A stretch of DNA of 33,397 bases from positions 1 to 33,397 of the forward strand of contig JAXHSZ010000068.1 in NCBI GenBank assembly GCA_034190725.1. Reading direction: 5' to 3'. Positions 947-32,327 of the stretch are shown here, piece after piece; the first letter of the stretch is position 1; each line of letters begins with the position of its first letter. A model generated the notes under the pieces. It searched no databases and was not told where the DNA came from. It saw nothing but the letters and a program-made list of their open reading frames with translations. This stretch comes from Thermodesulfobacteriota bacterium. GTDB taxonomy: Bacteria; Desulfobacterota; UBA8473. The position numbers and the translations under genes are program-made.

Positions 947-1285
947 ATGACTTGGCCAAAAAAAGGGACACGAAAGCTTGTCATAGATAATAAGGATTAT
1001 TTATGGCATTACGATGCACACTGCCCTCTCTGTAGCTCCGATGTTTTTACAATTGGTCGTCCTGGCAAAAAATTTGTATTGTTTATAGATCCAAATCCTT
1101 GGGGATTTGAATTGCGTCCAGCATCGGTTGTGGCCGCAATAACATGGGCCTTGAAGAAAGGTTGGTCTCCTGACTCCGGGCCGAATCGTAGTATTGCTTG
1201 GAACGATAAAACTCAAGAATATGAGTGGCTACCAGATGGCAAACGCCATTTGGCCTGTAATTCAAAACCCGTTTCAACAGAATAA
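947..1285 (+). CDS. hypothetical protein, 112 aa, no family recognised
   Basis: ATG ORF with an AAAGGA tract about 8 nt upstream. It is the only long ORF in the first 1.4 kb. The sequence looks globular but carries no motif I recognise. Confidence 0.5.
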   Translation: MTWPKKGTRKLVIDNKDYLWHYDAHCPLCSSDVFTIGRPGKKFVLFIDPNPWGFELRPASVVAAITWALKKGWSPDSGPNRSIAWNDKTQEYEWLPDGKRHLACNSKPVSTE

Positions 1286-1503
1286 GCTGTTAAGAAATAT
1301 GGCCTGTGGGATGGCGAAACGGAATGGTATTCGTATTCAAGTAAAAAAAATAAATGGACCGAAGAACAAAATGATGTCAGACGGGCTTATCGCTAGGATT
1401 TGTTGAGAGGTTTCTGTTCTCATCATTTTTTACATTTTATCCGAGTTTTTTTAGCGTAGTATACACCCACTGCTTTTCTTGGCGTTGGCAAAGAAAAAAA
1501 ATC

Positions 1504-1659
1504 ATGTTGAAAATGAAAATAGCGTTTGTGATCATCAGTGCATGCTTTGTTTCTCTGTTCATGAATTCCTGTGATAAGAACAGTGGATCGGACGATGATC
1601 ATGACAGTGTTACCGAGTATCGCTCTTTTTTATATGGCTGCTGCTCCTTTCCAGATTGA
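1504..1659 (+). other. 51-codon ORF encoding a lipoprotein-type signal peptide, out of frame with the overlapping 401-aa ORF
   Basis: Manual translation from ATG 1504 gives MLKMKIAFVIISACFVSLFMNSC-DKNSGSDDDHD..., that is a basic N-terminus, a hydrophobic core, Cys and a polar linker. It stops at TGA 1657-1659 in frame 1. The downstream body is open in frame 2 from 1565. A T6 run at 1626-1631 lies in the overlap. Confidence 0.55.
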
Positions 1660-2776
1660 GGTCACCAGCACAACCGCCAGATCGACTTTCCGGTTTCATG
1701 GTTTTCAAGGAAATGTAGACCTTATCTCTCTGCATACAGATAATTTTTTCGGCCTGCCGTGGGATGAGTTCAAACCTGGTGGTGAACGCGTGAATGCATG
1801 GCACGATGTAATAGAAGGAATAAAAGCTGAAGTTGAACCTCTTCAGGCAGGCATTTATTTGAGCGTGACACCGTTGAATGGTTTTCGCACCACCATAGCC
1901 GTGCAGGCTCGCGAAGTTGACGATGAATTATATATTGATGATGAGTGGTTAACGGGGTGTTACAATTTTGACACTGGCCCTAGTGCTGTCGAAATCAGAA
2001 CCGCATATCTCAATTATGTTCATTGGATGGTCGATTTTTTCGGCCCTGTTTTTCTTACCCATGGTATCGAAATAAATATGTATATGGATGCATGTCCTGA
2101 CTCTTATGAATCACTCATTCGTCTTTTGAATGATGTCTATGATCAGGAGAAAGCAAGAAATACTGATCTAATCATTTTTCCCACTTTTACCGCAAGTGAT
2201 ATGTGGGATTATGGTGAAGATGGTAACTGTCCTGTCGGGGATCGATCCTGCCTTACTGCCAATCTGGAAAACCAGAGAGACATCAAACGCGATCGATTCG
2301 GCATCAGTGCGTATCCTTTTTTACTGGAGTGGGAATGGGACCATATACCGAACGATTATTTTTCCGCTTTTGCTGAGTTGACAGAAGAAACAATTGTTTT
2401 TAGTGAAACTGGGCAAGGATCCTATAATGTGACCATTCCATGGCCAGAGCCCACAGATCCCTGTTTTACTGTTTTGCATTCGAGTGACGAAGCTCAAATG
2501 GAGTACATGCAATTTGTCTTCGAAGAGGCAGATCGACACAAGAGTGATTTGGTCGTGTGGTGGTCTTTACGTGACTTTCTCTTCGAGGAAATCCTTACAA
2601 ATTGTCCCTGTCAGGCACCCGGACTCTGGTGTTTGCTTTATGATGCCGTCACTGAAGACGGGTTGCTCCCTGCATGGATAATGTGGGGGTCAATGGGGGT
2701 TTTTGATTATAATGGCGCTCTGAAAGAATCTCATCCATTATGGTCTACGTGGTTGCAGAAAGAGAGAAAAAATTGA
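1571..2776 (+). CDS. hypothetical exported protein or lipoprotein body; probably 5'-frameshifted, function unknown
   Basis: 401-aa ORF with Trp/Asp-rich, enzyme-like composition (motifs LHTDNFFGLPWDEF, WWSLRDF). As drawn it has no convincing start or SD. Its natural N-terminus appears to be the signal peptide ORF at 1504 in another frame. Confidence 0.65.
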   Translation: MIRTVDRTMIMTVLPSIALFYMAAAPFQIEVTSTTARSTFRFHGFQGNVDLISLHTDNFFGLPWDEFKPGGERVNAWHDVIEGIKAEVEPLQAGIYLSVTPLNGFRTTIAVQAREVDDELYIDDEWLTGCYNFDTGPSAVEIRTAYLNYVHWMVDFFGPVFLTHGIEINMYMDACPDSYESLIRLLNDVYDQEKARNTDLIIFPTFTASDMWDYGEDGNCPVGDRSCLTANLENQRDIKRDRFGISAYPFLLEWEWDHIPNDYFSAFAELTEETIVFSETGQGSYNVTIPWPEPTDPCFTVLHSSDEAQMEYMQFVFEEADRHKSDLVVWWSLRDFLFEEILTNCPCQAPGLWCLLYDAVTEDGLLPAWIMWGSMGVFDYNGALKESHPLWSTWLQKERKN

Positions 2777-2781
2777 GATAC

Positions 2782-2837
2782 AAGCCTTTCGTAGAGTAGG
2801 TCACCACGGAGTATCACAGAAAAGGCTTCTGTTTTTT
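2782..2837 (+). terminator. possible intrinsic terminator after the 401-aa ORF
   Basis: AAGCCTTTC (2782-2790) pairs with GAAAAGGCTT (2819-2828) and is followed by TGTTTTTT (T-run 2832-2837). The loop is unusually long at about 28 nt. Confidence 0.3.
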
Positions 2838-2974
2838 ATCAGCAATGAGAGATACCTGGAAAGGGTACTTCCCATTGTAACGAATGAGGTTTCAAGCACA
2901 GATATGCAAATATCTTCGCAGAATTCCTAATGTAAAGAATCGATGAATTGCATTGTTTTCATTAAAAAATGAAA

Positions 2975-3153
2975 CCTAAATTGAGCGATTCTTTCCGTAG
3001 CGAGAGGACGTAGCTTGCTGAATATGGAGAAAAAAAACGATTCGAAGCGGACGAAAGTGAAGCCAACCCTTCAGTGAGTTCGGTTCGAAGTGTTTTTTAC
3101 CTCAGATTCAGTGAGATACGGCCTCGCAGTAGGAAAGAATCGCTCAGTTTAGG
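2975..3153. mobile_element. MITE-like non-autonomous element, a 179-bp imperfect hairpin with terminal inverted repeats and a 5-bp TSD
   Basis: The left end CCTAAATTGAGCGATTCTTTCC and the reverse complement of the right end CCTAAACTGAGCGATTCTTTCC match at 21/22. Arm complementarity continues imperfectly for about 75 nt to a central loop of about 28 nt. Identical TGAAA flanks the element at 2970-2974 and 3154-3158. There is no ORF inside. Confidence 0.5.
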
Positions 3154-3214
3154 TGAAACTAAAATATGATCTAATATATAGTCGATAGGAAACGGATACT
3201 CGGATAAGGGGAGT

Positions 3215-3490
3215 TCTTCTTTTGCCCTCCCCTCTCCTCAATGCTTTTGAATTAAGGGATAATTTTAAAGCTCTTACTTATTTAAAACTCCAATCTTCAA
3301 AGATTTCTCTCCCTTTATGAGGGAGGTGATGTGAGGGTGAAAAAACTGACCAGTAAAGTTATTTCTGTTTTTTTATCATAAAGTCTGTTTTTCACTCCCT
3401 CAATCCCTCCCACCAGGGGAGGGAGGTTTTCTTCCTCCTTCGATCTATTTTCCTAATTCAACAGCATTATCCCCTCCCCTCCCAACACCA
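3215..3490. repeat. cluster of short CCCTCCC/GGGAGGG hairpins and C-rich tracts in a non-coding spacer
   Basis: The cluster contains hairpins CTCCC-TTTATGA-GGGAG (3309-3325) and CCCTCCC-ACCAG-GGGAGGG (3405-3423). C-rich tracts GCCCTCCCCTCTCCTC (about 3223-3238) and TCCCCTCCCCTCCC (about 3470-3484) flank them. An inverted pair AATGCTTTTGAATTAAGG / CCTAATTCAACAGCATT brackets the whole region. Confidence 0.45.
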
Positions 3491-4029
3491 CCCGGCGTGT
3501 GTTGCAACATAAAGTCGCTTTTTGTCGCTGACATCAGAATCAACCTTCAATATAGCCGGCAGTTTATTCCCCCAATATGTATTGCTGGTAACGGCAATGT
3601 GTGAAGTTTGGGGGACAATGTGGCCCTCAATCTGACGACTGAAAGAGTGAATAGTGTTAGAAACTCAATTCTGGTCGCATCAACCGGATGAGAACTCAAA
3701 CAGAAACATTGGAACAGACAAATTATACTCACACTCAACACCCACGCATAAGTACCCTTACAAAAGACCATTTCTTCTTGCAGCTTTCATAGTAGCAACA
3801 ATCACTTCTTCATAACTCATATGGTAATTGTCTGACAAATGAAAATACTTTCTGCTTTTTTCGAGTTGTGCAGTGAGTTTATGCGGGTCATGTAAAAGCA
3901 CAGAGACACAGGGCAGAGAGAAGAATGATAATAAGGGACGGGTAACCTGCGACTTACATGTACTCTTCCCTTTGTTCTTGTAAATGTACCATCCGGAAAC
4001 CTATGGCTTTCAATTTCCCTAAAAAAGTC

Positions 4030-4059
4030 TTGACAAATATTTCAAAGAAGATATATATT
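4030..4059 (+). promoter_or_regulatory. sigma70-type promoter of the tetR-GRE operon
   Basis: Perfect -35 TTGACA (4030-4035), an 18-bp spacer and -10 TATATT (4054-4059). It lies 47 nt upstream of the tetR ATG. Confidence 0.55.
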
Positions 4060-4064
4060 AAGCT

Positions 4065-4082
4065 ATCGAACGAGCGTTCGAT
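4065..4082. promoter_or_regulatory. perfect palindromic operator candidate (probable TetR autoregulatory site)
   Basis: ATCGAACG-AG-CGTTCGAT has 8-bp perfect arms and a 2-bp centre. It starts 6 bp downstream of the -10 hexamer, so it sits over the expected transcription start. Confidence 0.5.
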
Positions 4083-4105
4083 CGGTGAGAAAGGGGTTAT
4101 GATTT

Positions 4106-4726
4106 ATGGAAGCAAATGCCATTCGCACTTTCAGTAATGATGAGAATCTCGTAAGGGAACGACGATATCAAATCGCAGAAGGAGCATTACAGTTATTTGT
4201 GAAGCAGGGGTATCATCAGACCTCTATTCGTCAGATTGCGCAGGCCGCAAATATGAGTGTCGGTACTCTATATCATTACATAGGCTCAAAGGTGGACATT
4301 CTCTTCATGGGGATTGAGGATGCTTTGAATAAGGTACATGATGCCATTGAATCAGCTTCAAAGATCGAAAGCCCAAAGGAAGCCTTGGATGACGCAATAG
4401 AAAGATTCATTCGTGCAGTGGATGATGCTCAGGATATTACGGTCTTTGCCTATCAAGAGTTGAGAAATCTTAAGCCGGATGTTATGGCAGGTCTTTTGGA
4501 TATTGACAAACGTTCCGCAGCCATATTCGAAGAGATCATATCCAAAGGGGTGAAACAGGGAGAGTTCAGGGAGGTTGATGTTCAGCTTGCAGCCCACGAT
4601 ATTATTGTGATGGGCCATATGTGGGCGTTCAGACGCTGGTTTTTGAGGAAACATTACACACTGGATCAGTACATTGAATATCAAAGGCGATTTATTCTGA
4701 ATGGAATTCTGACCGTTCAGGAATAG
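4106..4726 (+). CDS. TetR/AcrR-family transcriptional regulator
   Basis: The N-terminal HTH signature (GYHQTSIRQIAQAANMSVGTLYHYIGSK) is typical of TetR_N, and the C-terminus is a helical ligand-binding domain. The SD GAGAAAGGGG lies about 9 nt upstream of the ATG. Confidence 0.9.
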   Translation: MEANAIRTFSNDENLVRERRYQIAEGALQLFVKQGYHQTSIRQIAQAANMSVGTLYHYIGSKVDILFMGIEDALNKVHDAIESASKIESPKEALDDAIERFIRAVDDAQDITVFAYQELRNLKPDVMAGLLDIDKRSAAIFEEIISKGVKQGEFREVDVQLAAHDIIVMGHMWAFRRWFLRKHYTLDQYIEYQRRFILNGILTVQE

Positions 4727-4787
4727 AAGGATTATCGCTCTTGTGTATTAATAATTCTCAATCCATCGTGTCATGGGAGGAAGAGCT

Positions 4788-7223
4788 ATGGAATCAACAG
4801 TAAACACTCGAACATTGGACTTGAAAGAGAGAGTATGCCTCAAAACATTCACCGATGGGGCCCAGGCAAAAGGAAAGACAAGGAAGGGGGTGAAGCTGTG
4901 TATTGAGCGGGCTCGTTTGATAACGGAGTCATTCAAAGAGACGGAAGGCGAGTCTATGGTGATACGAAGGGCAAAAGCACTGGCAAGAATATTGGACAAG
5001 ATGACCATATATATTCAGAACGGAGAGAGGATTGTGGGTAATTTTGCCGGAGACCCACAGTCCGTATCATGGTATCCGGAGATCCAGTACAAATGGCTTG
5101 ATAAAGCCCTTGAAGACGGTTACAGAGACATATTGGACGAGCGGCAAAAGGTTGAATTAAAAGGAATTCATGCTTACTGGGAGGGCAAGACGGTTGAAGA
5201 CAGGGAAAGGGCTGTTATGCCCGTCCATTTGAAGAGATATCGAGGATTCACCGGGGCCAGTCTGTGGAGTCACTATGGATTCATCAGTGGACAGGTAAAG
5301 GTCGACTATCAAGAAATATTTCAAGAGGGACTCAATGGTCACATCAGGAGGGCAAAAGAAAAGATACGATCCCTTGAAAATGATCCTCACATTGCCCCTA
5401 TCGTTTATGTTCAGCAGAAAAATTTCATGGAAGCCGTAATAATTTGCCTTGAAGCGGCAAAAAGATTTGCAGCAAGATACTCTGAAGAGGCCTTGGATCT
5501 GGCAAGCACAGTGGATGATCCTCAAAGAATCCAGGAATTGAAGGAGATAGCAGAGACATGCAAATGGGTTCCTGGAAATCCCCCACGGACACTTCAGGAA
5601 GCATTACAGTCTTTCTGGTTTATTCATATGATCAATTGCATGATAGAGGCCCCCAATGGAGGATGCGGTCTTCGGTTCGATAAGGTGATGTATCCTTATT
5701 ATAAGAAGGACATGGAAGAAGGCAGGTTACACTCCAAAGAAGATGCAAAAGAATTGATCGAGCTTTTATGGATCAAATTTGAAGAATTGGGACGAATTCT
5801 CACTCCTCAGGCGGCTGCGGTCCAGACGGGCGGTACCATGTTCCAGACTGTAAACCTTGGAGGGATAGATGAAAACGGTACGGCCGTGATCAATGATTTG
5901 AGTTATCTGGCCCTCGAGGCATCAAAGACCATACGAACATTGCAACCCACATTGGCAGTCAAATACACCAACCATTTGCCAAAGGACTTTATATACAGTG
6001 CCATTGACCTTTTAAAGACGGGTATCGGATATCCCTCGTTCTTCAATGATAATACCATCATTCAACATCTTCTCAGTAAAGGCATCCCCATAGGGTCCGC
6101 CAGAGACTGGTCATGCCCCGGGTGCGTCAATTTCGGCGTGTATGAAGGCATTCATGAGCCTTCCATTGCTGCACGTCAGGCAAATATCGGGCATATCGTG
6201 CTTCCCAAGTGTCTCGAGCTGGCACTCAACCAAGGTGTGGACAAGCTCACCGGTGAAGAGATCGGTTATCCCACATCTGATCCAACGACCTTTACATCAA
6301 TAACGGATGTTATGGAAGCATACCTGAAACAGGTGAGCTTTTTTGCAGGAAAGATGATTAAAATAGAGAATATCCGGCAGGCGATCTTCGAAGAACACTA
6401 TCCAAAGCCATTTTCCGCTGCTCTGAGAAGGGATTTTGACAGGATTGAGCTGGGAAACGGCAACAAACCTTCTCCCCATTTTTCCGTTCTCGCATACCTG
6501 GTGGCCCTTGGACCAACCACTGTGGCGGATTCTTTGGCAGCCATGAAGAAACTGGTATTTGAAGAAAAGAGAATCACCATGAAAGAGCTGTTGAAAGCCT
6601 TGAAGAATAACTTTGAAGGTCAAGAGGAAATTCGTCGGATACTCATCAATGAAGCTCCAAAATTCGGAAATGATAATGACTATGTGGATTCCATAGCAAA
6701 ATGGGTTCATTATGAGACCAACAGGGTGGTTGAGAAATACCCTGACTATTTCGGTGCACCTGTTCATCTGGACGGCGGCGGCACCTCGACAAATATCACT
6801 TTTGCCCATCTCACAGGGGCAACACCGGACGGAAGACGGGACGGAGAGCCCTTTGCCGATGCCATTCTCTCGCCATCTGCCGGCAAGGACAAGAAAGGGC
6901 CGACAGCGACCCTGAAGTCCGCTTCAAAGGTAGATCCCATCACAACATACAATCATCTGTTCAACCAGAAATTCCTTCCTCAATTCCTGGAAGGAGACAA
7001 TGTACAGTTGTTCGCAGGTTATTTAAAAACTTGGGCTGATTTGGGCATTCAACATATCCAATTCAATGTCGTGGACGGAAATACATTGGTGAAGGCCCAA
7101 GAGCATCCTGAAGAACACGGTGATTTGATTGTACGGGTTGCAGGGTACAGTGCGTATTTTGTAGATCTGCCAAAAGCATTTCAAGACAATATCATAGAGA
7201 GAACAGAGCAGGCTTTTTGTTAG
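4788..7223 (+). CDS. glycyl radical enzyme, PFL2/glycerol-dehydratase-like family, paralogue 1 (Cys loop GCVN)
   Basis: The C-terminal glycine-radical motif is RVAGYSAYFVDL (Gly codon 7143-7145). The Cys loop is ARDWSCPGCVNFG (Cys 6123-6125). The length of about 811 aa fits the family. I prefer ATG 4788 (MESTVNT) because GGGAGGAAG lies just upstream; the ORF track starts at 4773. Confidence 0.9.
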   Translation: MESTVNTRTLDLKERVCLKTFTDGAQAKGKTRKGVKLCIERARLITESFKETEGESMVIRRAKALARILDKMTIYIQNGERIVGNFAGDPQSVSWYPEIQYKWLDKALEDGYRDILDERQKVELKGIHAYWEGKTVEDRERAVMPVHLKRYRGFTGASLWSHYGFISGQVKVDYQEIFQEGLNGHIRRAKEKIRSLENDPHIAPIVYVQQKNFMEAVIICLEAAKRFAARYSEEALDLASTVDDPQRIQELKEIAETCKWVPGNPPRTLQEALQSFWFIHMINCMIEAPNGGCGLRFDKVMYPYYKKDMEEGRLHSKEDAKELIELLWIKFEELGRILTPQAAAVQTGGTMFQTVNLGGIDENGTAVINDLSYLALEASKTIRTLQPTLAVKYTNHLPKDFIYSAIDLLKTGIGYPSFFNDNTIIQHLLSKGIPIGSARDWSCPGCVNFGVYEGIHEPSIAARQANIGHIVLPKCLELALNQGVDKLTGEEIGYPTSDPTTFTSITDVMEAYLKQVSFFAGKMIKIENIRQAIFEEHYPKPFSAALRRDFDRIELGNGNKPSPHFSVLAYLVALGPTTVADSLAAMKKLVFEEKRITMKELLKALKNNFEGQEEIRRILINEAPKFGNDNDYVDSIAKWVHYETNRVVEKYPDYFGAPVHLDGGGTSTNITFAHLTGATPDGRRDGEPFADAILSPSAGKDKKGPTATLKSASKVDPITTYNHLFNQKFLPQFLEGDNVQLFAGYLKTWADLGIQHIQFNVVDGNTLVKAQEHPEEHGDLIVRVAGYSAYFVDLPKAFQDNIIERTEQAFC

Positions 7224-7317
7224 GGATGGGAGGTTATTGGTCGGCGCAGAGTCCCCTTGAACTTAACATCAGGGGATGCAATAAGGGGCTTTTTCTTGTT
7301 TGAAAGGAGGAATTCCA

Positions 7318-9690
7318 ATGACTGTCAGTGCTGTATCACCACAGACATTGAAGGAAAATATCTGTTTCAAGACCCTGAAAGTACCTCTCAGGCCCGGGGT
7401 AAGACTCTGCCTCGAACGTCCTCGACTGTTGACCCAGTCATATAAAGAAACAGAGGGTGAGCCCATGGTCTTAAGAAGGGCAAAAGCCCTGAGCAGAATA
7501 CTTGAGAATATGACGGTGTATATACAAGACGGCGAGCGAATTGTTGGTAATTTCGCAAGTGATCCCCATTCACTCACATTCTATCCTGAGTTGTATTGTA
7601 GATGGGTCGAGAAGGCGGTGAATGACGGGTATAGAGATCTCCTGGACGAACGGGGGATAAATGAACTGAGGGAGATCAATGAATACTGGGGAAACAAGTC
7701 CGTGCACAGCCTCGATTCAAAGTACGTGTCCCGGGACTACTGGAGGGACACGGGAGGCGCGTTTGTATGGTTTTATCTGTTCGAAGGGGGAATACCGAAT
7801 TATGAAAAGATATTTCAGATTGGGCTCAACGGGATTATGGAAGAGGTAGAAAGGAGACTGACTGAGCTCGAGAACGATGCTGCAATCCATGCAAAGGATT
7901 TCATTGAGCAGAAGGACACCCTGGAAGCACTGATCATATCTCTCAGGGCGGTCATCAATTTCTCGAAGCGATATGCAGGCAAGGCAAAGGAACTTGCCCG
8001 AGACGAGGGGGACGAAAAACGAAGTAGGGAACTTCTGGAAATCGCTGCGATCTGTGATTGGATCCCTGCGAACCCACCGACAACATTCCATGAAGCACTC
8101 CAGTCCTTTTGGCTGATACATATGATCACACATATCATTGAGATACCCATGGTCGGGTGTGGCGTGCGATTCGACCGAATTTTCTATCCTTTTTACAAAA
8201 AGGACAGAGACGAAGGAAGAATTACAAAGCAAGAGGCTCAAGAGCTTTTAGAATTCTTATGGGTCAAGTTCGAAGAGGTGGGGCATCTTCATCCTCCAAT
8301 GATGGCAGAGGCCGGTGCAGGGGCCAACATGTGGCAGACCATAATTATCGGTGGAACTACTCCTGAGGACGAGGATGCCACCAACGAGGTTTCCTATCTG
8401 GTTCTTGATACGGCAAAATCAATGAGAACTTTGCAGCCCCCCGTGGCTATTCGATACCATGACAAAATACCCAATGATCTTATCATGAGCGCCATTGATC
8501 TCATAAAGGTATCCCATGCTCATCCGGCCTTCTTCAACGACAAAGCCATGATCCCCTGGCTTACGACAAAGAAGGGGATCCCCCTGGAAGATGCTTTAGA
8601 CTATGGTATAAACAGTTGCATGGAGTGGAATATCCCTGGCAAGAATATTCTCACGCGCACTTCCGCAGGGTTGATTTTACTCCCAAAGTGTTTGGAATTG
8701 GCATTGAATATGGGTGTAGACAAGTTCAGCGGGAGACAGATAGGCTATCCCACCCCTGATCCCACCTCATTTCAATCCATTGACGATGTAATGGAGGCCT
8801 TTTTGAAACAGGTACGCTTTTTCTCAGGAAGAGCAGCCAGGATGAGTGATATAGGCGACGCCCTCTATGAAGAATATCTGCCCCGTCCTTTTATGTCGGC
8901 ACTCATAGACGACTGTATTGAAAAGGGGAAGGATTGCCGGAGATGGAGTTACCACGGCAAGAGGGCTCCATGTACGGTCGGAGCCAACAATGTGGCGGAT
9001 TCACTTGCAGCCATGAAGAAGGTCGTCTTTGAAGAGAAAAGGATATCCCTGGACGAACTCTTGGATGCACTCAAGCATAACTGGGACGGGAAAGAGGACC
9101 TCCGCAGACTCATGCTGAGTGCGCCGAAGTTCGGGAATGATGACGATTATGTGGATTTAATGGCAAGGGAAGTCCAGGTGAGGGTGACGGAGGAAATGGA
9201 AAGACATCCAGGTTACTATGGAGTCTCTCTTTCCCCTGAGGGCAGTGTTGCTGCAGCACCGTACGCGATGGCCATCTTCACAGGAGCCACCCCGGACGGA
9301 AGAAAGGATGGTGAACCGTTTCACGATGGGACCATCTCACCGGTTCAGGGGAGAGATACAAACGGTCCCACCGCTGTTCTCAAGTCTGCCTCCAAGGTGG
9401 ATCCTGTTGTCACCTATAATCATCTTCTCAATCAAAAATTCATGCCTCAATTTCTCGAAGGGGATTTCAGAGATGCGTTTACAGCATATCTGAAGACCTG
9501 GTCTGAACTGGGGATTTATCATATCCAGTTCAATGTGGTTGACAGGGATGTACTTTTAGATGCCCAAGAGCACCCTGATGATCACAATGACCTGATGGTG
9601 AGGGTATGTGGGTATGCAGCATATTTCGTGGACATGAGCAAAGGCCTGCAGGACGATATTATTGCCAGGACTGAACAAAAATTATCGTAA
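7318..9690 (+). CDS. glycyl radical enzyme, PFL2-like family, paralogue 2 (Cys loop SCME)
   Basis: It carries the RVCGYAAYFVDM glycine-radical motif and the Cys loop ALDYGINSCMEW (Cys 8617-8619, Glu 8623-8625). It is collinear with paralogue 1 along its whole length. I prefer ATG 7318 (MTVSAV), which is preceded by AAAGGAGGAA. Confidence 0.9.
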   Translation: MTVSAVSPQTLKENICFKTLKVPLRPGVRLCLERPRLLTQSYKETEGEPMVLRRAKALSRILENMTVYIQDGERIVGNFASDPHSLTFYPELYCRWVEKAVNDGYRDLLDERGINELREINEYWGNKSVHSLDSKYVSRDYWRDTGGAFVWFYLFEGGIPNYEKIFQIGLNGIMEEVERRLTELENDAAIHAKDFIEQKDTLEALIISLRAVINFSKRYAGKAKELARDEGDEKRSRELLEIAAICDWIPANPPTTFHEALQSFWLIHMITHIIEIPMVGCGVRFDRIFYPFYKKDRDEGRITKQEAQELLEFLWVKFEEVGHLHPPMMAEAGAGANMWQTIIIGGTTPEDEDATNEVSYLVLDTAKSMRTLQPPVAIRYHDKIPNDLIMSAIDLIKVSHAHPAFFNDKAMIPWLTTKKGIPLEDALDYGINSCMEWNIPGKNILTRTSAGLILLPKCLELALNMGVDKFSGRQIGYPTPDPTSFQSIDDVMEAFLKQVRFFSGRAARMSDIGDALYEEYLPRPFMSALIDDCIEKGKDCRRWSYHGKRAPCTVGANNVADSLAAMKKVVFEEKRISLDELLDALKHNWDGKEDLRRLMLSAPKFGNDDDYVDLMAREVQVRVTEEMERHPGYYGVSLSPEGSVAAAPYAMAIFTGATPDGRKDGEPFHDGTISPVQGRDTNGPTAVLKSASKVDPVVTYNHLLNQKFMPQFLEGDFRDAFTAYLKTWSELGIYHIQFNVVDRDVLLDAQEHPDDHNDLMVRVCGYAAYFVDMSKGLQDDIIARTEQKLS

Positions 9691-9771
9691 TGGATAAGGC
9701 TGAGGGTGAGAAAACCCCTCTGTTTTTGGAGGAAACTCAAAATTGAATTGTTAAAGGAGGAAAAGGTTCGA

Positions 9772-11511
9772 ATGGGAAAAGGTGAAGATCTTACTGCAAA
9801 AGGACAATACCGGTTGGTAAAGACGGAGACTCAATCCGGGATCAAGGTAAAACCATCATACGGCCCTGATGACATAGAAGGGCTTGATTATGAAAAAGAC
9901 CTGGGCGATCCGGGTCAGTGGCCGTTTACCAGGGCCACCCATGATGGACTCTATCGAAACATGCTGTGGTTGCATGAGAACCTATACATGACAGGCAGTG
10001 AGCGGTTTAAGGAAACTTGGATCCATCGAGTGGGGCTGTCAAATCCCAATCCTCCGGGATACGATGGAAACTTTTTTTATAATCCATGCGATGCGGCCCG
10101 GGAAGCAGGAGTGGACCCGGATCATCCCATGGCCCGATTGGAAATCGGTTGCGCCGGTAATGTTCACTATTGCCTCCGTAATTTGGAAGACGACCTTGAA
10201 ACGGTCCCGAACGAAAAATTGAAAACACTTTATCTCTGTTCTTTGGATGCTCCCTCACATGGAGACACACCGAGATATGCGCAGCATATTGCCCTGTTTG
10301 AAAAACGAGGTATACCCCTGGAGGAGATGAGGGGTTTTCAGGTAAATGACGGTATACACATCCATATCATCAGGTGGTGCGACAGTAACCCCCTTGATCT
10401 CAGTTTCAGGTTGAGTGTTGATTCCATGGAATTCAGCGCCAGGAACACGCCCCGATATTATCCCATCTGTCCGAACATGTATGATATGAGAGAGACAGGC
10501 ATAGATGTGATCCAGGAAGTGGCTTTCAATCTGAGCGAGCGAATTGCCTTCATCGATGAAGCCATGAAACGGGGGATCAAATTTGAACAACTCACCCATA
10601 GGATTGACATATCCTTTACAGGAGAGATCGATTTCTTCGAGACAATTTGTAAAATCAGAGCGGCCCGGAGGATGTGGGCCAGAATAGCCAAGGAAAGATA
10701 TGGATGTACCGATCCTAAATATATGAGACCGCCCACCGGGATAAACATGGCAGGCAGCGCCATGACCGCACAGCAGCCCGTAAACAATATCTCCAGAATA
10801 GCAATTATCAGCCTTGCGTGTGCCTTAGCAGGGGTTCGTTCCATACAGCCCAAAAATTTCCTGGAGCCTCTGCCCGTACCGTGGTTGCCCGGGACCATGT
10901 ATCCAAGCATTGCCACCCAGTATATTATCGCTCATGAGACAGGAGTTCCCCTGGTTGCAGATCCATTGGGTGGTTCCTATTATGTTGAGTGGCTGACCAA
11001 TAAGATCGAAGAGGAAGCGAGCAAATTGATGAAGGAGATAGAAGACAGGGGTGGAATACTGGAATGTATCAGGAGCGGTTGGATACAGGGGGAAGCCGAG
11101 AAAAAGGCCCTTGATCTCCAAAGAGAATTGGAGGAGGGGCGAAGGATTCAGGTGGGGGTGAATGCGTTTCAAATACCCAAGGATATAGAAGTACCCATAC
11201 CTGAGATTGAGCTTGAGGATCTGGAAAAGTGTCCCGGTGGTGAAAAGTTTGAAAGCCTGGAGGAGTATCAGTTGAAGATCCTGAAGGAGATAAAGGAGTT
11301 CAAGGAGGGGAGAGATTCAGCCAGGACAAGAGAAGGTATGTTACGACTCCGTGAAGCCTCGGGAAATGGAGAGAACTTGATTCGTCCCATGATAGAGGCA
11401 TATAAAGCCGATGCTACTACCGGGGAGGTAATGGGTATGATCAGAGAAGGCATGGGATACAGTTACGATCCATTCAATGCCATAGAAAGACCGGAATTCT
11501 TAAACCAGTGA
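9772..11511 (+). CDS. divergent methylmalonyl-CoA-mutase-family large (substrate-binding TIM-barrel) subunit
   Basis: Family landmarks are TQSGIKVKPSYGPDD, PGQWPFTRA, FFETICKIRAARRMWARI, MTAQQPVNNI and DPLGGSYYVEWLT. Several canonical blocks (RQYAGF, GLSVAFDL, SGYH) are replaced. There is no fused B12 domain. I prefer ATG 9772, which is preceded by AAAGGAGGAAAAGG. Confidence 0.8.
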   Translation: MGKGEDLTAKGQYRLVKTETQSGIKVKPSYGPDDIEGLDYEKDLGDPGQWPFTRATHDGLYRNMLWLHENLYMTGSERFKETWIHRVGLSNPNPPGYDGNFFYNPCDAAREAGVDPDHPMARLEIGCAGNVHYCLRNLEDDLETVPNEKLKTLYLCSLDAPSHGDTPRYAQHIALFEKRGIPLEEMRGFQVNDGIHIHIIRWCDSNPLDLSFRLSVDSMEFSARNTPRYYPICPNMYDMRETGIDVIQEVAFNLSERIAFIDEAMKRGIKFEQLTHRIDISFTGEIDFFETICKIRAARRMWARIAKERYGCTDPKYMRPPTGINMAGSAMTAQQPVNNISRIAIISLACALAGVRSIQPKNFLEPLPVPWLPGTMYPSIATQYIIAHETGVPLVADPLGGSYYVEWLTNKIEEEASKLMKEIEDRGGILECIRSGWIQGEAEKKALDLQRELEEGRRIQVGVNAFQIPKDIEVPIPEIELEDLEKCPGGEKFESLEEYQLKILKEIKEFKEGRDSARTREGMLRLREASGNGENLIRPMIEAYKADATTGEVMGMIREGMGYSYDPFNAIERPEFLNQ

Positions 11512-11557
11512 TAATAAGAAATCGCAAGGTCTCATTCCATGGAGGTGAAGGTTGAAA

Positions 11558-12115
11558 ATGGAATACAAAACGTCAGACGAAAAGAGAAAGATGAGGGTAT
11601 TAATGGCAAAACCCGGAATCGACACCCATTGGAGGGGTGCTTTTGTTATTGCTCAGGCGCTCAGGGATGCCGGGATGGAGGTGATTTACACAGGAACGTA
11701 TAAAAGTCCTGAGATGGTATTGAATATGGCCATAGAAGAAGATGTGGATGTCATTGCCATGAGTTTTATGGGCGGGTCCCACGTACCTTTGTCCAGAGAG
11801 ATCGTGAAATTGGTCAAAGAAAAGGAGGCTGAGGATATCTGTCTTATTGCCGGTGGGATCATCAGGGATTCCGATAAAGAGGTATTACAGGAAATGGGGA
11901 TTTCCGGGCTGTATGGGCCCGGCACTCCCTTGGACCTCATAGTCGGCCATATTGCCCAGAGGATCAGGAGGGAGAGATGGAATCAACCCGTCTGTTGTAA
12001 AGAGTGTGCCATGTTTTCCCCAACGCAAGAGAATGAGAGAGAAGTTGAGTGTAACGGTACGGTTGTGTCACATGATACAGAGGTCACGGACTGCCTTGAT
12101 TTTCGGTTTTCATGA
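11558..12115 (+). CDS. cobalamin-binding small subunit (B12-binding Rossmann domain) with an atypical Cys-rich tail of about 45 aa
   Basis: The DxHxxG motif is present as GIDTHWRG in RVLMAKPGIDTHWRGAFVIAQAL, with downstream SF..GG and GGII blocks. GGAGGTGAAGG lies upstream of ATG 11558. The tail is NQPVCCKECAMF...ECNG...DCLDFRFS. Confidence 0.85.
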   Translation: MEYKTSDEKRKMRVLMAKPGIDTHWRGAFVIAQALRDAGMEVIYTGTYKSPEMVLNMAIEEDVDVIAMSFMGGSHVPLSREIVKLVKEKEAEDICLIAGGIIRDSDKEVLQEMGISGLYGPGTPLDLIVGHIAQRIRRERWNQPVCCKECAMFSPTQENEREVECNGTVVSHDTEVTDCLDFRFS

Positions 12116-12119
12116 TCAC

Positions 12120-12242
12120 TTGATATTCATGAAATATATCCGCAGGAACCACAAAGGACACGAGGATACCTGGAAGGTCTTCAAGGTGGATCCCAGCACA
12201 GGGGGGTTCATTCCCATGACCGGATGGAGGAAAGCAGAATAG
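12120..12242 (+). pseudogene. 3'-terminal remnant of a second LivK-type substrate-binding-protein gene
   Basis: In frame 3 it reads ...RRNHKGHEDTWKVFKVDPSTGGFIPMTGWRKAE-stop. This parallels the C-terminus of the intact SBP, SHKGGNAWKIFKADPSTEKFIPKTGWRSPE-stop. DNA similarity is also visible (CCACAAAGGA..TGGAAG..GATCC..GGATGGAG). No N-terminal part is present. Confidence 0.65.
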
Positions 12243-12300
12243 GAGTTTCCGACTGGAAATGTTCTTATTATTGAAACTTGAAAGCAAGGAGGTGTAACTC

Positions 12301-13515
12301 ATGAAAAAAGGCGTATTCGTCATTGATTGTCGTGTATTATTCATGGTTCTTGTTTCTACAATCCTCGTTCTTGTATGGGGAAAACCCGGTTATTGTGCAA
12401 AGGGAGTGACTGATGATACCATAACGATGGGTGTCATATTCGATCAAACAGGACCGGCTGCAGAGCCCTGCCTTCTTCCGACAAAAGCAGTGAGGAACCT
12501 CTCTCGATTCATTAACAAACAGGGGGGAATACTTGGAAGAAAGCTGAAGATATTTGTTGAAGATGACCGTTGTGCCATTCCTATGGCCGTGTCTTCCTTT
12601 AAAAAATTAGTCTTCCGGGATAAAATTATTTCTTTACTCGGACCCACAAGCTCAGGTGGTGTCATTGCCTTATTGAGGAGTATTAATAAAGAAAAGGTCC
12701 CTACCATCCCAATATCGGCAATGGAAAGGATGGTCAATCCCTTCCAACGGTATATCTTTACCATTCAGGATACCTACCCTGGTCAGATGAAGGTAATTGT
12801 TGATTATATTATGAAAGATTTGAAGGCAAAAAACCCACGGATTGCATTAGTCTTACCGGATAATGAAACAGGAAAGGCAGATTTAAAACCCGCAATGGAG
12901 AGACTGAAACAATACAATCTGGAGCCTGTAAAAAAGGAGATTCTCAATTATGGTTCCCTTGATGCTACTTCCCAAGTAATGAACCTGAGGAGGGCTCAGC
13001 CTGATTATATTATATCATGCGGTTCACAACCTCAACCAACGATCGTTCTCTTGAGAGAGATGAGAAAGTTTGGTGTGAAGATTCCCTTGTTTTGTAGTTG
13101 GGCGAGTGGGAGCGAAGAGGTAATACGGATAACAGGTGATGCATCTGCATTGCTTTATGTAGTCCATGCCGCAGCCTCATGGTATGATGAGGGACCTGGG
13201 GTGGCTAAGATGAGGGAAATTACTCTCAAATATGAACCAAACACGGAGGAATACCAACGTGGAAAGAACTATACACTCGGTTGGGTTATGGTAACTGTTA
13301 TGTTCGAGGGGATGAAGAGGGCAGGAAGGAATCTTAATGGAGAGACTCTGGTAAAGAGTTTGGAGGGGATAAAGAACTTTGACACGGGAGGGCTCACAGT
13401 ACCAATAAGTTACAGCTCAACAAGCCACAAAGGAGGAAATGCATGGAAGATATTTAAGGCCGATCCATCCACAGAGAAATTTATACCCAAGACTGGATGG
13501 AGAAGCCCAGAGTAA
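12301..13515 (+). CDS. periplasmic substrate-binding protein, LivK/branched-chain-amino-acid ABC type (Peripla_BP_6-like), orphan
   Basis: It has an N-terminal signal sequence (hydrophobic VLFMVLVSTILVLVW) and a type-I PBP layout (ITMGVIFDQTGPAA, LLGPTSSGG). AAGGAGG lies 8 nt upstream of the ATG. No permease or ATPase genes are adjacent. Confidence 0.85.
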   Translation: MKKGVFVIDCRVLFMVLVSTILVLVWGKPGYCAKGVTDDTITMGVIFDQTGPAAEPCLLPTKAVRNLSRFINKQGGILGRKLKIFVEDDRCAIPMAVSSFKKLVFRDKIISLLGPTSSGGVIALLRSINKEKVPTIPISAMERMVNPFQRYIFTIQDTYPGQMKVIVDYIMKDLKAKNPRIALVLPDNETGKADLKPAMERLKQYNLEPVKKEILNYGSLDATSQVMNLRRAQPDYIISCGSQPQPTIVLLREMRKFGVKIPLFCSWASGSEEVIRITGDASALLYVVHAAASWYDEGPGVAKMREITLKYEPNTEEYQRGKNYTLGWVMVTVMFEGMKRAGRNLNGETLVKSLEGIKNFDTGGLTVPISYSSTSHKGGNAWKIFKADPSTEKFIPKTGWRSPE

Positions 13516-13608
13516 AGCCTGGAGCGGAATTTTATCAGAGGCTAATTCTGCGGTTAATATCTTCCTTTTTCTTGACTGTACAGAATATTTCAGTTGCAGA
13601 TGAAAATT

Positions 13609-13648
13609 CAACAAAAGCCACATCATTTTGGTGTGGCTTTTGTTGTTT
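13609..13648 (+). terminator. rho-independent terminator closing the tetR-to-SBP operon
   Basis: Perfect 14-bp stem CAACAAAAGCCACA (13609-13622) / TGTGGCTTTTGTTG (13632-13645) with a 9-nt loop, followed by TTT. Confidence 0.8.
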
Positions 13649-13761
13649 GATGCTTTTGGGTCTTATTTGTCTTTTCCTATGATATTGCAAAATCGCTCTG
13701 ACCTGGAGTAAAAACATATTTTCGGTGACTTATGAATTTTTTGCATACTTGTCGTCATTGC

Positions 13762-13784
13762 ATGTGTTATAATGAATAACACAT
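13762..13784 (+). promoter_or_regulatory. extended -10 promoter (TGTTATAAT) embedded in a 9-bp-arm palindrome, upstream of the hydrolase gene
   Basis: TGnTATAAT matches perfectly at 13765-13773. The inverted repeat ATGTGTTAT (13762-13770) / ATAACACAT (13776-13784) has a 5-bp spacer. Confidence 0.4.
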
Positions 13785-13963
13785 ATGTGCTCAACAAAAA
13801 AAACTCTTTGAGGATTTATCTTCCCTCATATCCAGAGTTTGTCTGTTAGAAACTGGTAAGGTTAAAAAAGATGATTGAAGATCGTATCTGTGCTTGACTC
13901 TTTCAATATTGTCCGTCCGAAACTGATGGTCTATAAAAAACGCTAAATCCCAGGAGCAACAAG

Positions 13964-14755
13964 ATGGTCAAATCAGGAGATGATCTGTCCGTTCTGGATC
14001 TTCCGGAGATACTCCAGTTCGTCTTCTTTCCCAGGAAAGATTTTGGGGGAAAACCCTCCATGGAGGGAGTAACTGATTACCGAATCCCAGTGGAAGATGA
14101 GGTATTCATAGGGTGCCGTTCCCATATTTGCGGAAAAGATTTCCCAAATATACTATACTTTCATGGCAACGGAGAGATCGTAAGTGATTACGATGATGTT
14201 GCCCCTCTGTTTAAAGGGATCGGCGCGAATCTTCTTGTGGCTGACTACAGAGGGTATGGATTCAGCAGCGGGACGCCGACTCTGAGTAGTATGATTGAGG
14301 ATGCCCATAATATATTTCATTTTTTCGTTAACATTCTAAGAGAAGAAGGTTATACGGGCAAGCTTTTTGTTATGGGGAGATCTCTCGGAAGTGCCTCTGC
14401 TTTGGAACTGGCCTGCAATTATCAGGAGCAGATAAGCGGCGTTATTATTGAAAGCGGTTTTGCAAATCTTTTCGATCTGCTGAGAAATATCGGGTTTCCT
14501 GTAGACTCCCTTAACCTATCAGATGAGATTAAAAACTCTACTCTTTCAAAGATTCGTTCAATCAATATCCCTGTTCTCATCATTCACGCTCAGTATGACA
14601 ACATCATTCCCCTTACGGAAGGGATGACGATTTTCGAAAATGTTCCTACGGACCGAAAGAGAATGTTGGTCGTACCGAATGCAGATCACAATAACATAAT
14701 GATTATGGGACTGAATAAGTACTTTGGAGTAATTGAACAATTTGTGTTTCAATAA
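13964..14755 (+). CDS. alpha/beta-fold serine hydrolase
   Basis: The nucleophile elbow is GRSLGS (GxSxG). HGNG is an oxyanion-type motif. The late Asp (AQYDNIIP) and His (ADHNN) are arranged as in a catalytic triad. AGGAG lies 8 nt upstream. Confidence 0.85.
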   Translation: MVKSGDDLSVLDLPEILQFVFFPRKDFGGKPSMEGVTDYRIPVEDEVFIGCRSHICGKDFPNILYFHGNGEIVSDYDDVAPLFKGIGANLLVADYRGYGFSSGTPTLSSMIEDAHNIFHFFVNILREEGYTGKLFVMGRSLGSASALELACNYQEQISGVIIESGFANLFDLLRNIGFPVDSLNLSDEIKNSTLSKIRSINIPVLIIHAQYDNIIPLTEGMTIFENVPTDRKRMLVVPNADHNNIMIMGLNKYFGVIEQFVFQ

Positions 14756-15364
14756 GCTTCTTTAAAAAAGTCGCTAAGGAAATATCAAATTACAATCCGT
14801 ATCAAGCTCACATTTGAGTAGTCGTAAAAAAGAACAGCATATCACCATTGAATTAACCCTCTCAATTCCGGCCTCTTTCAGGCACATTAATGTGGGGGAA
14901 TCCCGTGTTCTTTCTTTACACTCACTCAGGTACTCAAACAGTTATACACATTAAAACTTAATCGTCATTGAAACTTACTGATCTCTTTTTTTATTTCATA
15001 GAACCAGACTATTGCCGGATAGGAGACTTTCAGGATGAATCCTATGGAGATTCATTCTATAGCTTCGCAACATTGAAAAAGAAAGTGTGCATACAGATAT
15101 GGGGAACCTCATAATATTCTTGACATTTTACCGAAATCAATTTAGAAGATTACTATCAGGTTGAGTGAGTCTGACTCAGAGATTGCAGAAAAGAGCCATT
15201 TACTGATAGATTCCAAAAGACACATAGTATGGTATCGTGATGGCGCAATATTTGAGTTTTTTTGGCATATAAATTGCTTCTCCAATATATTGGCGATTAC
15301 ATATCATCAAGACATTCTAAAGTTTTTTTATAGTGTGAAATAATAGGAAATGAAAAATTGACCA

Positions 15365-15445
15365 CGTCATTCCGGCGAAGACCGGAATCCAGTGTCGCTT
15401 CATAATGTTCTTTGTTCTGGATGCCGGATCAAATCCAGTATGACG
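15365..15445. repeat. pair of short palindromic intergenic repeats of the widespread type that mistranslates as WIPxFAGMT
   Basis: CGTCATTCCGGCGAAGACCGGAATCCAG contains the hairpin ATTCCGG-CGAAGA-CCGGAAT, and its reverse strand reads WIPVFAGMT. A second diverged inverted copy, CTGGATGCCGGATCAAATCCAGTATGACG, follows. Confidence 0.5.
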
Positions 15446-15654
15446 AAAGAACTTTGGACTGTCAAGATATCATGAAAAGGAGAAAATTTTTTTCATACTC
15501 AGTTTCAACTCCACCTTGTTTGGAATTATTGCTACCACTTGAAATATACGTTGTTGAAATACAGATGAATATTATCTTTAATGGCCGATACTTCTTGTCA
15601 GTTTCTTTTTCTGAATCTATGTCCGATTGAGTACTGAATGTGTGATATAGAGAT

Positions 15655-16965: not shown

Positions 16966-16990
16966 ATGCGAATTTATTTTTGCCCTGCCC

Positions 16991-21582: not shown

Positions 21583-21653
21583 GTCATATCTGTTTTCATA
21601 CTTCATGATGTCCACCTATCATGAAATACCCGAAGAGATTAAAGGAGGAGTTG

Positions 21654-22109: not shown

Positions 22110-22122
22110 CAGAAATTTTGTG

Positions 22123-32229: not shown

Positions 32230-32327
32230 AACTGATCCCTCCAAAATACTGGTTCAATTCTCATACCGACTGGACCAATCGGACTGATAAAGCAAAGAAA
32301 ATAAGAAATGAGGTGAAGAATTCCTCA

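Follow-up and report, generated by a model that had tools for sequence, protein, structure and literature searches.

What does a bacterium accomplish with an operon that sets two oxygen-sensitive glycyl-radical enzymes (GREs) beside a B12-dependent mutase of the methylmalonyl-CoA mutase (MCM) family? The question is raised by contig JAXHSZ010000068.1 of a Thermodesulfobacteriota bacterium, whose 33,397 bp make up the entire window analysed here (a gene missing here may still be present elsewhere in the genome) and which carries, in succession, genes for a TetR-family regulator, two GREs (GRE1 and GRE2), the large and the B12-binding small subunit of the mutase, the remnant of one solute-binding protein (SBP) and an intact SBP. 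GREs and B12 mutases are the two main means by which anaerobes break unreactive C–H and C–C bonds, and the only described route using both is, to our knowledge, the addition of fumarate to alkanes with a subsequent mcm-type rearrangement. A first-pass annotation of the sequence had proposed a catabolic module that couples glycyl-radical with adenosylcobalamin chemistry and matches no described pathway. The latter view was borne out, both the GREs and the mutase lying outside characterised clades; the coupling gained support from a conserved linkage, and the missing helper genes proved not to be a trait of the system. We tentatively read the operon as a coupled two-radical catabolic cassette that would follow a logic like that of fumarate addition and act on an imported and probably carboxylated substrate, a reading that we regard as possible rather than probable.

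A single transcription unit running from tetR through the SBP gene is supported by the layout of the operon (4030–13660), in which all genes lie on the plus strand with intergenic gaps of 46–190 nt and gene starts are backed by AGGAGG-type ribosome-binding sites. The seven elements previously listed on one strand with a single promoter and terminator were all present where the first-pass annotation had put them (Table 1). The total of promoter-like matches in the region equalled the shuffle expectation, and the sequence 5′ of tetR is consistent with a promoter rather than proof of one. Hairpins within the operon were no better than those of shuffled sequence. The perfect palindrome ATCGAACG-AG-CGTTCGAT between the −10 box and tetR, of which this is the sole exact copy in the window (one further match has 3 mismatches), is probably the TetR operator. 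No cobalamin riboswitch or other regulatory RNA was found upstream of the operon.

Adjacency of a GRE and a mutase was met again on five other contigs (L008, L009, L010, L092 and L095) when the neighbourhoods were examined for recurrence, a check that the first-pass annotation had suggested, and its retention on other contigs argues for functional coupling. L008 and L009 carry the two closest mutase homologues (62–64% identity), and in both a GRE1-type gene ends 24–85 nt upstream of the mutase. The order in L008 is GRE1-type gene, mutase, B12 subunit, with protein identities of 62–64%; GRE1 is 64% identical to its L008 counterpart and 75% identical to that of L009 over a C-terminal fragment. 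The DNA of these two contigs is ~66–69% identical to the window, with L008 at ~66%, indicating that the synteny outlasted considerable divergence. The more distant L010 (mutase at 45% identity) has the order mutase, B12 subunit, GRE, SBP, mutase, B12 subunit, SBP, mutase. Its positions 1–11367 thus hold three tandem non-canonical large-subunit genes, two of which are accompanied by a B12 subunit and an SBP of their own, and a single GRE among them, an array that points to cassette duplication and substrate diversification.

The linkage was also found in unbiased scans, in which 160 loci, retrieved with a mutase profile from genomes of GTDB and metagenomes of JGI, were counted for a GRE within 10 kb. 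Most of these loci held canonical mutases, and a GRE was found only at L092 and L095, giving a frequency of ~2/31 for non-canonical versus 0/129 for canonical mutase loci (Fisher p ~0.04). The gene order at L092 is CoA ligase, TetR_C_24 regulator, mutase, B12 subunit, MeaB, GRE, activase, electron-transfer flavoprotein (ETF) beta, ETF alpha and acyl-CoA dehydrogenase (ACAD), and that at L095 is SBP, GRE, ACAD, CoA transferase III, mutase, B12 subunit and CoA transferase III.

Relatives of the GREs occur in a recurring metabolic setting. The closest full-length GRE1 homologues (55% identity; L001–L004) are solitary GREs without a mutase, and a relative at 51% identity (L005) has an activase 3 kb off. 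Across the family, the neighbours are SBPs or TRAP transporters, CoA ligases, ACADs, enoyl-CoA hydratases (ECHs), thiolase with DUF35, OYE-type reductases and PrpD-like proteins; SBP/TRAP genes, CoA ligases, ACADs and thiolase with DUF35 are carried by L005, L171, L172, L173, L175 and L176. These neighbour genes are a toolkit for the uptake of organic acids and their subsequent degradation as CoA esters. At L172, from another Thermodesulfobacteriota metagenome-assembled genome (MAG; GCA_040757775.1), a stretch of 15 kb (6915–22403) holds two same-family GREs and three Peripla_BP_6 SBPs, together with a PaaK-like and an AMP-binding ligase and without an activase; the GRE-SBP pairing looks like a recurring unit. 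L171 (255–9865) and L175 (1223–17430) have a TRAP DctPQM transporter in place of the SBP and an activase adjacent to the GRE. L171 is flanked by two PrpD/MmgE-family genes, and L175 carries AtuA, ACADs, ECH, thiolase with DUF35 and two CoA ligases.

The analogy with fumarate addition comes in large part from the small subunit of the mutase. The small subunits of the window and L008 run ~50 residues past the B12 domain, an extension absent in L010, L092 and L095. The tail follows the pattern CxxC-x14-C-x13/14-C, its four Cys are kept in all three known tails (window, L008 and protein P0361), and their spacing is presumably that of HiPIP-type 4Fe-4S sites. Against Pfam, the L008 tail gave sub-threshold matches to BssB_TutG (E 0.011–0.015), BssC_TutF (0.013–0.021), HPIP_like (0.014–0.02), HIPIP (0.075) and LRV_FeS (0.12) and to nothing else, all of them families of small Fe-S proteins. 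When all 177,635 distinct PDB sequences were searched (E ≤ 10) with a profile built from the window and L008 tails, exactly two matched, MasC (E 0.031; tCkeCkmFsPtqederkvkCn aligned with TCKECRNYFPINEEASRGDCV) and TutF (E 0.22), the gamma subunits of 1-methylalkylsuccinate synthase and benzylsuccinate synthase (BSS), respectively. The same two proteins remained on top with a three-tail profile (E 0.079 and 0.75). Among 1.84 billion representative proteins, the tail matched one further tailed B12 subunit, P0361 (66% identical), and one spurious repeat protein. AlphaFold modelled the tail alone, from a single sequence, at pLDDT 58, and Foldseek matches to this model were meaningless.

Because the top two PDB matches were both gamma subunits of X-succinate synthases (XSS) and the operon also encodes two GREs, coincidence is very unlikely, and we propose with moderate confidence, from the sequence matches, that the tail represents an XSS-gamma-type Fe-S domain. 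Speculatively, it would dock on a GRE and so physically link both enzymes. The small subunits of XSS carry Fe4S4 clusters and are themselves needed for activity, though no role has been described for them (10.1101/2024.10.11.617960). The first-pass annotation had noted that such small subunits were absent. This held for separate beta and gamma genes, there being no small Cys-rich ORF in or beside the operon and nothing convincing in a small-ORF scan beside the GREs of 12 loci, but not for the B12 subunit itself, which carries the gamma-like four-Cys tail. The analogy with fumarate addition is therefore closer than had been assumed, though the alpha chains themselves lie outside the XSS clade.

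Both alpha chains belong to the GRE superfamily (PF02901 and PF01228, a PFL-like barrel, an RVAGY or RVCGY motif and a mid-sequence catalytic Cys) and are paralogues sharing 50% identity. When compared with the characterised clades, as had been suggested, they fell outside all solved or curated GRE classes, a placement made by profile and pairwise scores (Pfam, NCBIfam, phmmer). Both scored 320–542 bits on NCBIfam equivalogs with cut-offs of 1000–1150, and 548 and 600 bits on the PFL2-3 subfamily model TIGR01774 with a cut-off of 678. In phmmer searches of the PDB, solved GREs were nearly equidistant (330–520 bits), with glycerol dehydratase (GDH) best at 478–519 bits, HypD at 394–460 bits, BSS and MasD towards the lower end of the range, and HPAD and classical PFL far lower. 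A plasmid tblastn for a BssA sequence returned only eliminase, PFL and YbiW types.

The second residue after the catalytic Cys (C+2) is the catalytic Glu in GRE eliminases. The loop of GRE1 reads PGCVNF, with Asn at C+2 and a 4-residue insertion, and both the GCVN and the insertion are common to GRE1 and its L008 orthologue; GRE2 has SCMEW, a C-x-E motif, and does not conserve the GDH diol-binding residues H164, H281, S282 and D447. Members of the GRE family score at least 760 bits, and across 125 aligned members the catalytic Cys is invariant (125/125) and C+2 is hypervariable (Y 48, R 32–33, S 20–22, Q 6, N 3, A 3, F 3, D 2), with E found only in GRE2. An Arg at C+13 (C+17 in GRE1) is kept in 119 of the 125 members (95%) and is absent from GDH and HypD; compared by spacing, it recalls the fumarate-binding Arg508 of BSS, which lies 15 residues after Cys493 (10.1101/2024.10.11.617960). 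We conclude that, as judged by sequence, the GREs represent an uncharacterised functional class within the PFL2-like GREs that has probably diversified by substrate. C+2 (GRE2 residue 442 of the 796-aa ORF) splits into discrete subclades (CVY, CMR, CMS and others), a possible handle for specificity prediction.

Several specific assignments of the GREs were tried and rejected. A pyruvate or ketoacid formate-lyase making branched acyl-CoA does not fit the single loop Cys, there being no Cys-Cys pair, or the TIGR01255 scores of 115–118 against a cut-off of 994. A diol or glycerol dehydratase feeding propionyl-CoA to methylmalonyl-CoA mutase would require GDH substrate residues that are absent and a canonical MCM, which the mutase is not. 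The alpha chains were denied a place in canonical XSS on whole-protein scores below those to GDH and Cys-loop scores below those to HypD and GDH, and one in the eliminase class (GDH, propanediol (PD) dehydratase, HypD, CutC, IslA, HpsG) on the C-V-N of GRE1, the C-M-E of GRE2 without the GDH residues, and the missed equivalog cut-offs. Separately, the 793-aa chain of PDB entry 8iof_A bears the deposited name "benzylsuccinate synthase alpha subunit", but its aligned loop reads GCVE (C-x-E) and it is far shorter than the BSS alpha chain; the name may be an annotation carry-over.

The mutase is equally unusual. Its domains (PF01642, TIGR00641) and the paired DxHxxG subunit place the large subunit in the MCM family, with the large subunit of 2-hydroxyisobutyryl-CoA mutase (HCM; 4r3u) as the best solved match (213 bits). 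Alignments to human MCM and HCM and a 179-sequence alignment showed that the canonical motifs are replaced (Table 1), with the substitutions Y89→L, R82→M, T85→L, R87→E, Q197→V, H244→D, H328→G and Q330→N in P. shermanii MCM numbering. R207 and Y243 remain, and an R or K at position 207 is confined to the window, L008 and L009. We take the residue roles from P. shermanii MCM and A. tertiaricarbonis HCM, with R207 presumed to bind a carboxylate in MCM and H244 presumed to be catalytic. The H244→D change is shared by a "YD" clade of 36 sequences in the sample, from Desulfobacterota, Dehalococcoidia and other MAGs, within which the window-type lineage is the most derived. Neighbours at 35 loci of this clade were the B12 subunit (27), ACAD (10), a TetR_C_24 regulator (9), CoA ligase (8), MeaB (7), GRE (5), ECH (5) and SBP (4), and this setting among acyl-CoA genes indicates that the members are most likely acyl-CoA mutases of new specificity. 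A MeaB-type chaperone, which was not found in the window, is present in L092 and in 7 of the 35 YD-clade loci.

The genes that such enzymes would need for activation and substrate supply were sought throughout the window. Pfam found no activase, CoA ligase, CoA transferase, MeaB, ACAD, ETF or TRAP permease, and no ABC permease or ABC ATPase, among all other window ORFs of at least 80 aa. A tblastn search of the window with activases, CoA ligases, MeaB, CoA transferases, ACAD, ETF and DctM from related loci returned nothing at E ≤ 0.1, and no CxxxCxxC motif occurred in any window ORF of at least 100 aa. The reported absence of activase, CoA ligase or transferase, MeaB and ABC membrane genes from the 33 kb was thus confirmed by Pfam and tblastn, with ABC components, left out of the tblastn query set, covered by Pfam only. 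It stands for the window and fails as a trait of the system, since L092 and L095 carry CoA-activation genes in cis and L092 also carries MeaB and an activase. The accompanying generalisation that an activase is almost always encoded next to its GRE did not hold for this family, in which only 4 of 12 loci (L005, L092, L171 and L175) had one within the fetched flank, so that an activase encoded elsewhere is the rule. Since distant relatives hold activase, MeaB, CoA ligase or transferases, ACAD and ETF in cis, these functions are probably supplied here in trans. The missing helper genes reflect the short contig and the gene organisation of this GRE family, not the system.

The regulator and the SBP give hints to the nature of the substrate. 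By name, the closest solved structures to the TetR protein are Bacillus FadR, KstR2 and MbdR, which we take to be TetR regulators responsive to CoA thioesters. The window protein shares with them TetR_N and TetR_C_24 and a palindromic candidate operator overlapping the promoter; unlike them, it scores far under every equivalog cut-off (77 bits on the FadR model, cut-off 200). The intact SBP resembles those of ABC importers of the LivJ type in its Peripla_BP_6 architecture and signal-like N-terminus, and differs from them in having no neighbouring permease or ATPase genes. The SBP remnant noted in the first annotation is real: it reads MKYIRRNHKGHEDTWKVFKVDPSTGGFIPMTGWRKAE and is 54% identical to the last 37 residues (369–404) of the intact SBP (E 1e-11). 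SBPs are paired again and again with a cytoplasmic radical enzyme in related loci (L010, L095 and L172).

From the gene content, operon structure, conserved adjacency, active-site substitutions and tail motif described above, we infer each step of the following pathway. The exported LivJ-type SBP would capture a polar, probably carboxylated substrate, on which a GRE would perform the difficult first step, with the GRE1-type enzyme as the conserved partner of the mutase and GRE2 as an extra paralogue. The product would be a branched dicarboxylic intermediate of the substituted-succinate type, most plausibly formed by addition of the substrate radical to fumarate; this step is suggested by the gamma-like tail, the conserved post-Cys Arg, the retained R207 of the mutase and the alkane precedent. 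The thioester would then be formed by a CoA ligase or CoA transferase from another locus, and the non-canonical adenosylcobalamin mutase would shift its carbon skeleton, opening the way to beta-oxidation. The acyl-CoA intermediate may release the FadR-like TetR repressor from its palindrome, and the four-Cys tail, with a predicted 4Fe-4S cluster, may dock on the GRE and link it to the mutase. Other loci would likewise provide the activase, MeaB, the CoA-activating enzyme and the membrane components of the ABC importer. It is unlikely, in our estimate, that the linkage goes further, with the tail tethering the mutase to a GRE in a two-radical complex that makes the succinate-type intermediate from an imported polar substrate and at once rearranges it, possibly free of CoA, on a non-XSS alpha chain with a shared small subunit; a CoA-free rearrangement might be conceivable given the loss of the usual CoA-contact residues from the window-type mutase. 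Such a complex would represent a new type of fumarate-adding system.

Several observations weigh against the fumarate-addition scheme. The alpha chains lie outside the XSS clade, with BSS at 363–398 and MasD at 377–380 bits compared with 478–519 for GDH, and over the Cys-loop segment XSS rank near the bottom (29–35 bits versus 57–66 for HypD and GDH). The likeness of the tail to gamma subunits is weak, covering ~21 residues at E 0.03–0.08 for MasC and 0.2–0.75 for TutF; the window's own tail had no match in Pfam; and the tail is confined to the window-type lineage, in that among the 2.3 Mb of fetched loci no real ORF other than those of the window and L008 has its motif. The mutase has lost positions R82, T85 and R87, which we take to contact CoA in MCM. 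A mutase is absent from most loci of the GRE family, and a GRE from most loci of the non-canonical mutase clade. Finally, the presence of an SBP speaks for a polar substrate, whereas fumarate addition classically acts on hydrocarbons.

The alternative that survives best, which we nevertheless consider somewhat unlikely, also has a coupled pathway: a GRE would carry out another chemistry (elimination, decarboxylation or another C–X or C–C reaction) on an imported organic acid, the product would be activated to its CoA ester in trans, the mutase would linearise a branched acyl-CoA, and the tail would be a structural or redox Fe-S module with no part in docking on a GRE. It accords with the overall scores of the GREs, which are closest to eliminases (GDH, then HypD), with the eliminase C-x-E motif of GRE2, with the SBP/TRAP linkage that points to polar acids, and with the occurrence of the mutase clade in ordinary acyl-CoA and beta-oxidation contexts with MeaB. 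The hypervariable C+2, with E only once, leaves no conserved catalytic Glu, however, the GDH substrate-binding residues are absent, and the matches of the tail to XSS small subunits would go unexplained.

A further possibility, which we find doubtful, is that the operon joins co-regulated but biochemically independent SBP-linked cassettes (GRE with SBP; mutase and B12 subunit with SBP) for different, related substrates, adjacency reflecting shared regulation and gene shuffling. Modularity of this kind is seen at L010 and L172, with repeated mutase-B12-SBP and GRE-SBP units, and the SBP remnant shows that a cassette was lost here; most GRE loci are without a mutase and ~29 of the 31 non-canonical mutase loci are without a GRE, and GRE2 stands between GRE1 and the mutase in the window and not in L008. 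Independence is harder to reconcile with the GRE1-type gene 24–85 nt upstream of a window-type mutase in L008 and L009 despite ~66–69% DNA identity, with the single promoter, operator and terminator, and with the fusion of an XSS-gamma-like tail to the mutase subunit only in this lineage.

That the locus is instead a decaying, non-functional remnant of a larger operon, from which the activase, CoA ligase, MeaB and transporter genes were lost, appears very improbable. The SBP pseudogene fragment, a group II intron fragment just 5′ of the operon and the failure to find helper genes in 33 kb would agree with decay, but the five ORFs that encode the enzymes and the regulator are undamaged, have good ribosome-binding sites and retain the Gly, Cys and DxHxxG motifs, and two thirds of the related GRE loci also lack an adjacent activase, indicating that supply in trans is normal for the family. 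Still harder to credit is that the adenosylcobalamin protein serves the GRE by generating or restoring its protein radical in place of a radical-SAM activase, an idea compatible with the absence of an activase from the window, L008, L009 and L010, with the heavily remodelled mutase active site that has lost CoA-contact residues in the window type, and with the resemblance of the tail to subunits that bind GRE alpha chains, but contradicted by L092, which has a mutase, MeaB and a conventional activase beside its GRE, and by solitary GREs of the same family that have neither activase nor mutase, which implies that activases act in trans, and without a known precedent.

Table 1. Features of the operon and motifs of the mutase large subunit
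Feature	Coordinates	Strand	Evidence or remarks
Sigma-70-like promoter, TTGACA-18-TATATT	4030–4059	+	11/12 positions; top match within 3400–14200; 5′ of tetR
Candidate TetR operator, perfect 8+2+8 palindrome ATCGAACG-AG-CGTTCGAT	4065–4082		Between −10 box and tetR ATG
tetR, TetR-family regulator	4106–4726	+	TetR_N + TetR_C_24
GRE1	ORF 4773–7223; ATG 4788	+	811 aa; ATG preceded by GGAGG; PFL-like 560 bits, Gly_radical 94 bits; RVAGY
GRE2	ORF 7300–9690; ATG 7318	+	790 aa; ATG preceded by AGGAGG; PFL-like 607 bits, Gly_radical 98 bits; RVCGY
Mutase large subunit	ORF 9706–11511; ATG 9772	+	579 aa; PF01642 353 bits; TIGR00641 310.7 bits, cut-off 303.8
B12-binding small subunit	11558–12115	+	PF02310; TIGR00640 131.9 bits, cut-off 57.45
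B12-binding domain of small subunit	11558–11959	+	DTHWRG fits DxHxxG
C-terminal four-Cys tail of small subunit	11960–12115	+	CKEC-x14-C-x13-C
SBP remnant (3′ end of second SBP gene)	12129–12242	+	37 codons; likeness to intact SBP
LivJ-type SBP	12301–13515	+	Peripla_BP_6 140 bits; signal-like N-terminus
Intrinsic terminator	13609–13660 (hairpin 13609–13645)	+	17-bp stem then T-rich tail; dG −25 kcal/mol, z −6.2
Mutase motif, canonical WTMRQ[YF]AGF			Window WLHENLYMTG
Mutase motif, canonical GT.QNDILKE[YF].A[RQ]			Window GFQVNDGIHIHIIRW (QNDILKE → VNDGIHI)
Mutase motif, canonical ISGYHIREAG			Window PNMYDMRETG (GYH → MYD)
Mutase motif, canonical PRLSFFF			Window HRIDISF
Mutase motif, canonical RFHTQTAG			Window PTGINMAG (FHTQT → TGINM)

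The surroundings of the operon bear on its history. A group II intron D1–D4 fragment lies on the plus strand at 3544–3695, just 5′ of the operon promoter and inside an ORF-poor gap (2777–4105); it scored 71.8 bits on RF02012 (gathering threshold 34), had no D5/D6 match and no reverse-transcriptase ORF, and is probably an intron remnant, which may mark a past insertion or an acquisition boundary. The G+C content of the operon (5000–12000) is 0.45–0.49, compared with 0.35–0.44 for most of the remaining contig. The raised G+C, the intron fragment and the SBP pseudogene together suggest that the cassette was acquired or rearranged.

Elsewhere on the contig lie genes for PilB-like ATPases, response regulators with DUF4388, and proteins of the MglA/MglB-like, TPR and AAA types, along with several ORFs that Pfam did not match. 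The segment 18510–32720 looks like a motility or polarity module unrelated to the operon, with PilB/T2SSE-like ATPases (18510–19556 and 22123–24441), two DUF4388 response regulators, a HAMP/Cache zinc-ribbon protein, a 787-aa ORF without a Pfam match (29248–31611) and several smaller such ORFs, an MglA-like protein (31624–32244) that is 75–78% identical to those of Desulfatibacillum, Desulfonema and Desulfobacterales MAGs, and an MglB/Roadblock-like protein (32328–32720). Judged by its MglA-like protein, the host is an uncultured member of the Desulfobacterales, related to sulfate reducers. At 15655–17887, a 298-aa TPR protein and an AAA_22 ATPase like the XrtA/PEP-CTERM-associated ATPase (151 bits, under the cut-off) lie on opposite strands and face each other, and a 401-aa ORF at 1571–2776 (+) had no Pfam match.

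Beyond this locus, the analysis brings out a large uncharacterised GRE clade in Desulfobacterota and Chloroflexota with a hypervariable active-site loop and a habitual pairing with SBPs and CoA ligases, which suggests that a family of radical reactions on polar organic acids is yet to be discovered in sediments. It also exposes a clade of MCM-like mutases without the catalytic His and a fusion that may physically link both enzyme types. If the fumarate-addition scheme is true, the operon would represent a new anaerobic pathway of activation and rearrangement and would give the first functional clue to the role of XSS small subunits. Searches of bioRxiv and PMC, of partial coverage such that an earlier description is possible, found GREs together with acyl-CoA or methylmalonyl-CoA mutases only in papers on fumarate addition and in one review.

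Compared with known systems, the enzymes individually resemble two groups. The GREs share with the PFL2-class eliminases (GDH/PD dehydratase, HypD, CutC, IslA, HpsG/HpfG) the best overall matches, the fold, RVxGY, a single catalytic Cys and, in GRE2, C-x-E, but fall under the equivalog and PFL2-3 cut-offs, do not conserve H164, H281, S282 and D447 of GDH, and have Asn at C+2 in GRE1. The mutase has the PF01642 large subunit and separate DxHxxG subunit of the methylmalonyl-, isobutyryl-, 2-hydroxyisobutyryl-, ethylmalonyl- and pivalyl-CoA mutases, and MeaB is linked in its relatives; unlike those enzymes, the window protein has its canonical motifs replaced and an extra Fe-S-type tail on its small subunit.

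As a whole, the module is closest to the Ass/Mas and Bss systems with mcm. In the alkane route, alkylsuccinates undergo an mcm-type carbon-skeleton rearrangement and then beta-oxidation (10.1101/2023.08.24.554723). Common to both is the combination of a GRE with an MCM-family B12 mutase, to which related loci add ACAD, ETF, thiolase with DUF35 and either a CoA ligase or CoA transferases of family III. The four-Cys tail also resembles the gamma subunit, MasC and TutF being its top two, albeit weak, PDB matches. The window differs in that its alpha chains lie outside the XSS clade, its gamma-like module is fused to the B12-binding subunit in place of separate beta and gamma genes, no activase is adjacent, the exported SBP implies a polar substrate, and the mutase is non-canonical (H244→D and other changes). 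By this analogy, the module would be most like the alkylsuccinate synthase and mcm system in function, while failing in alpha-subunit membership.

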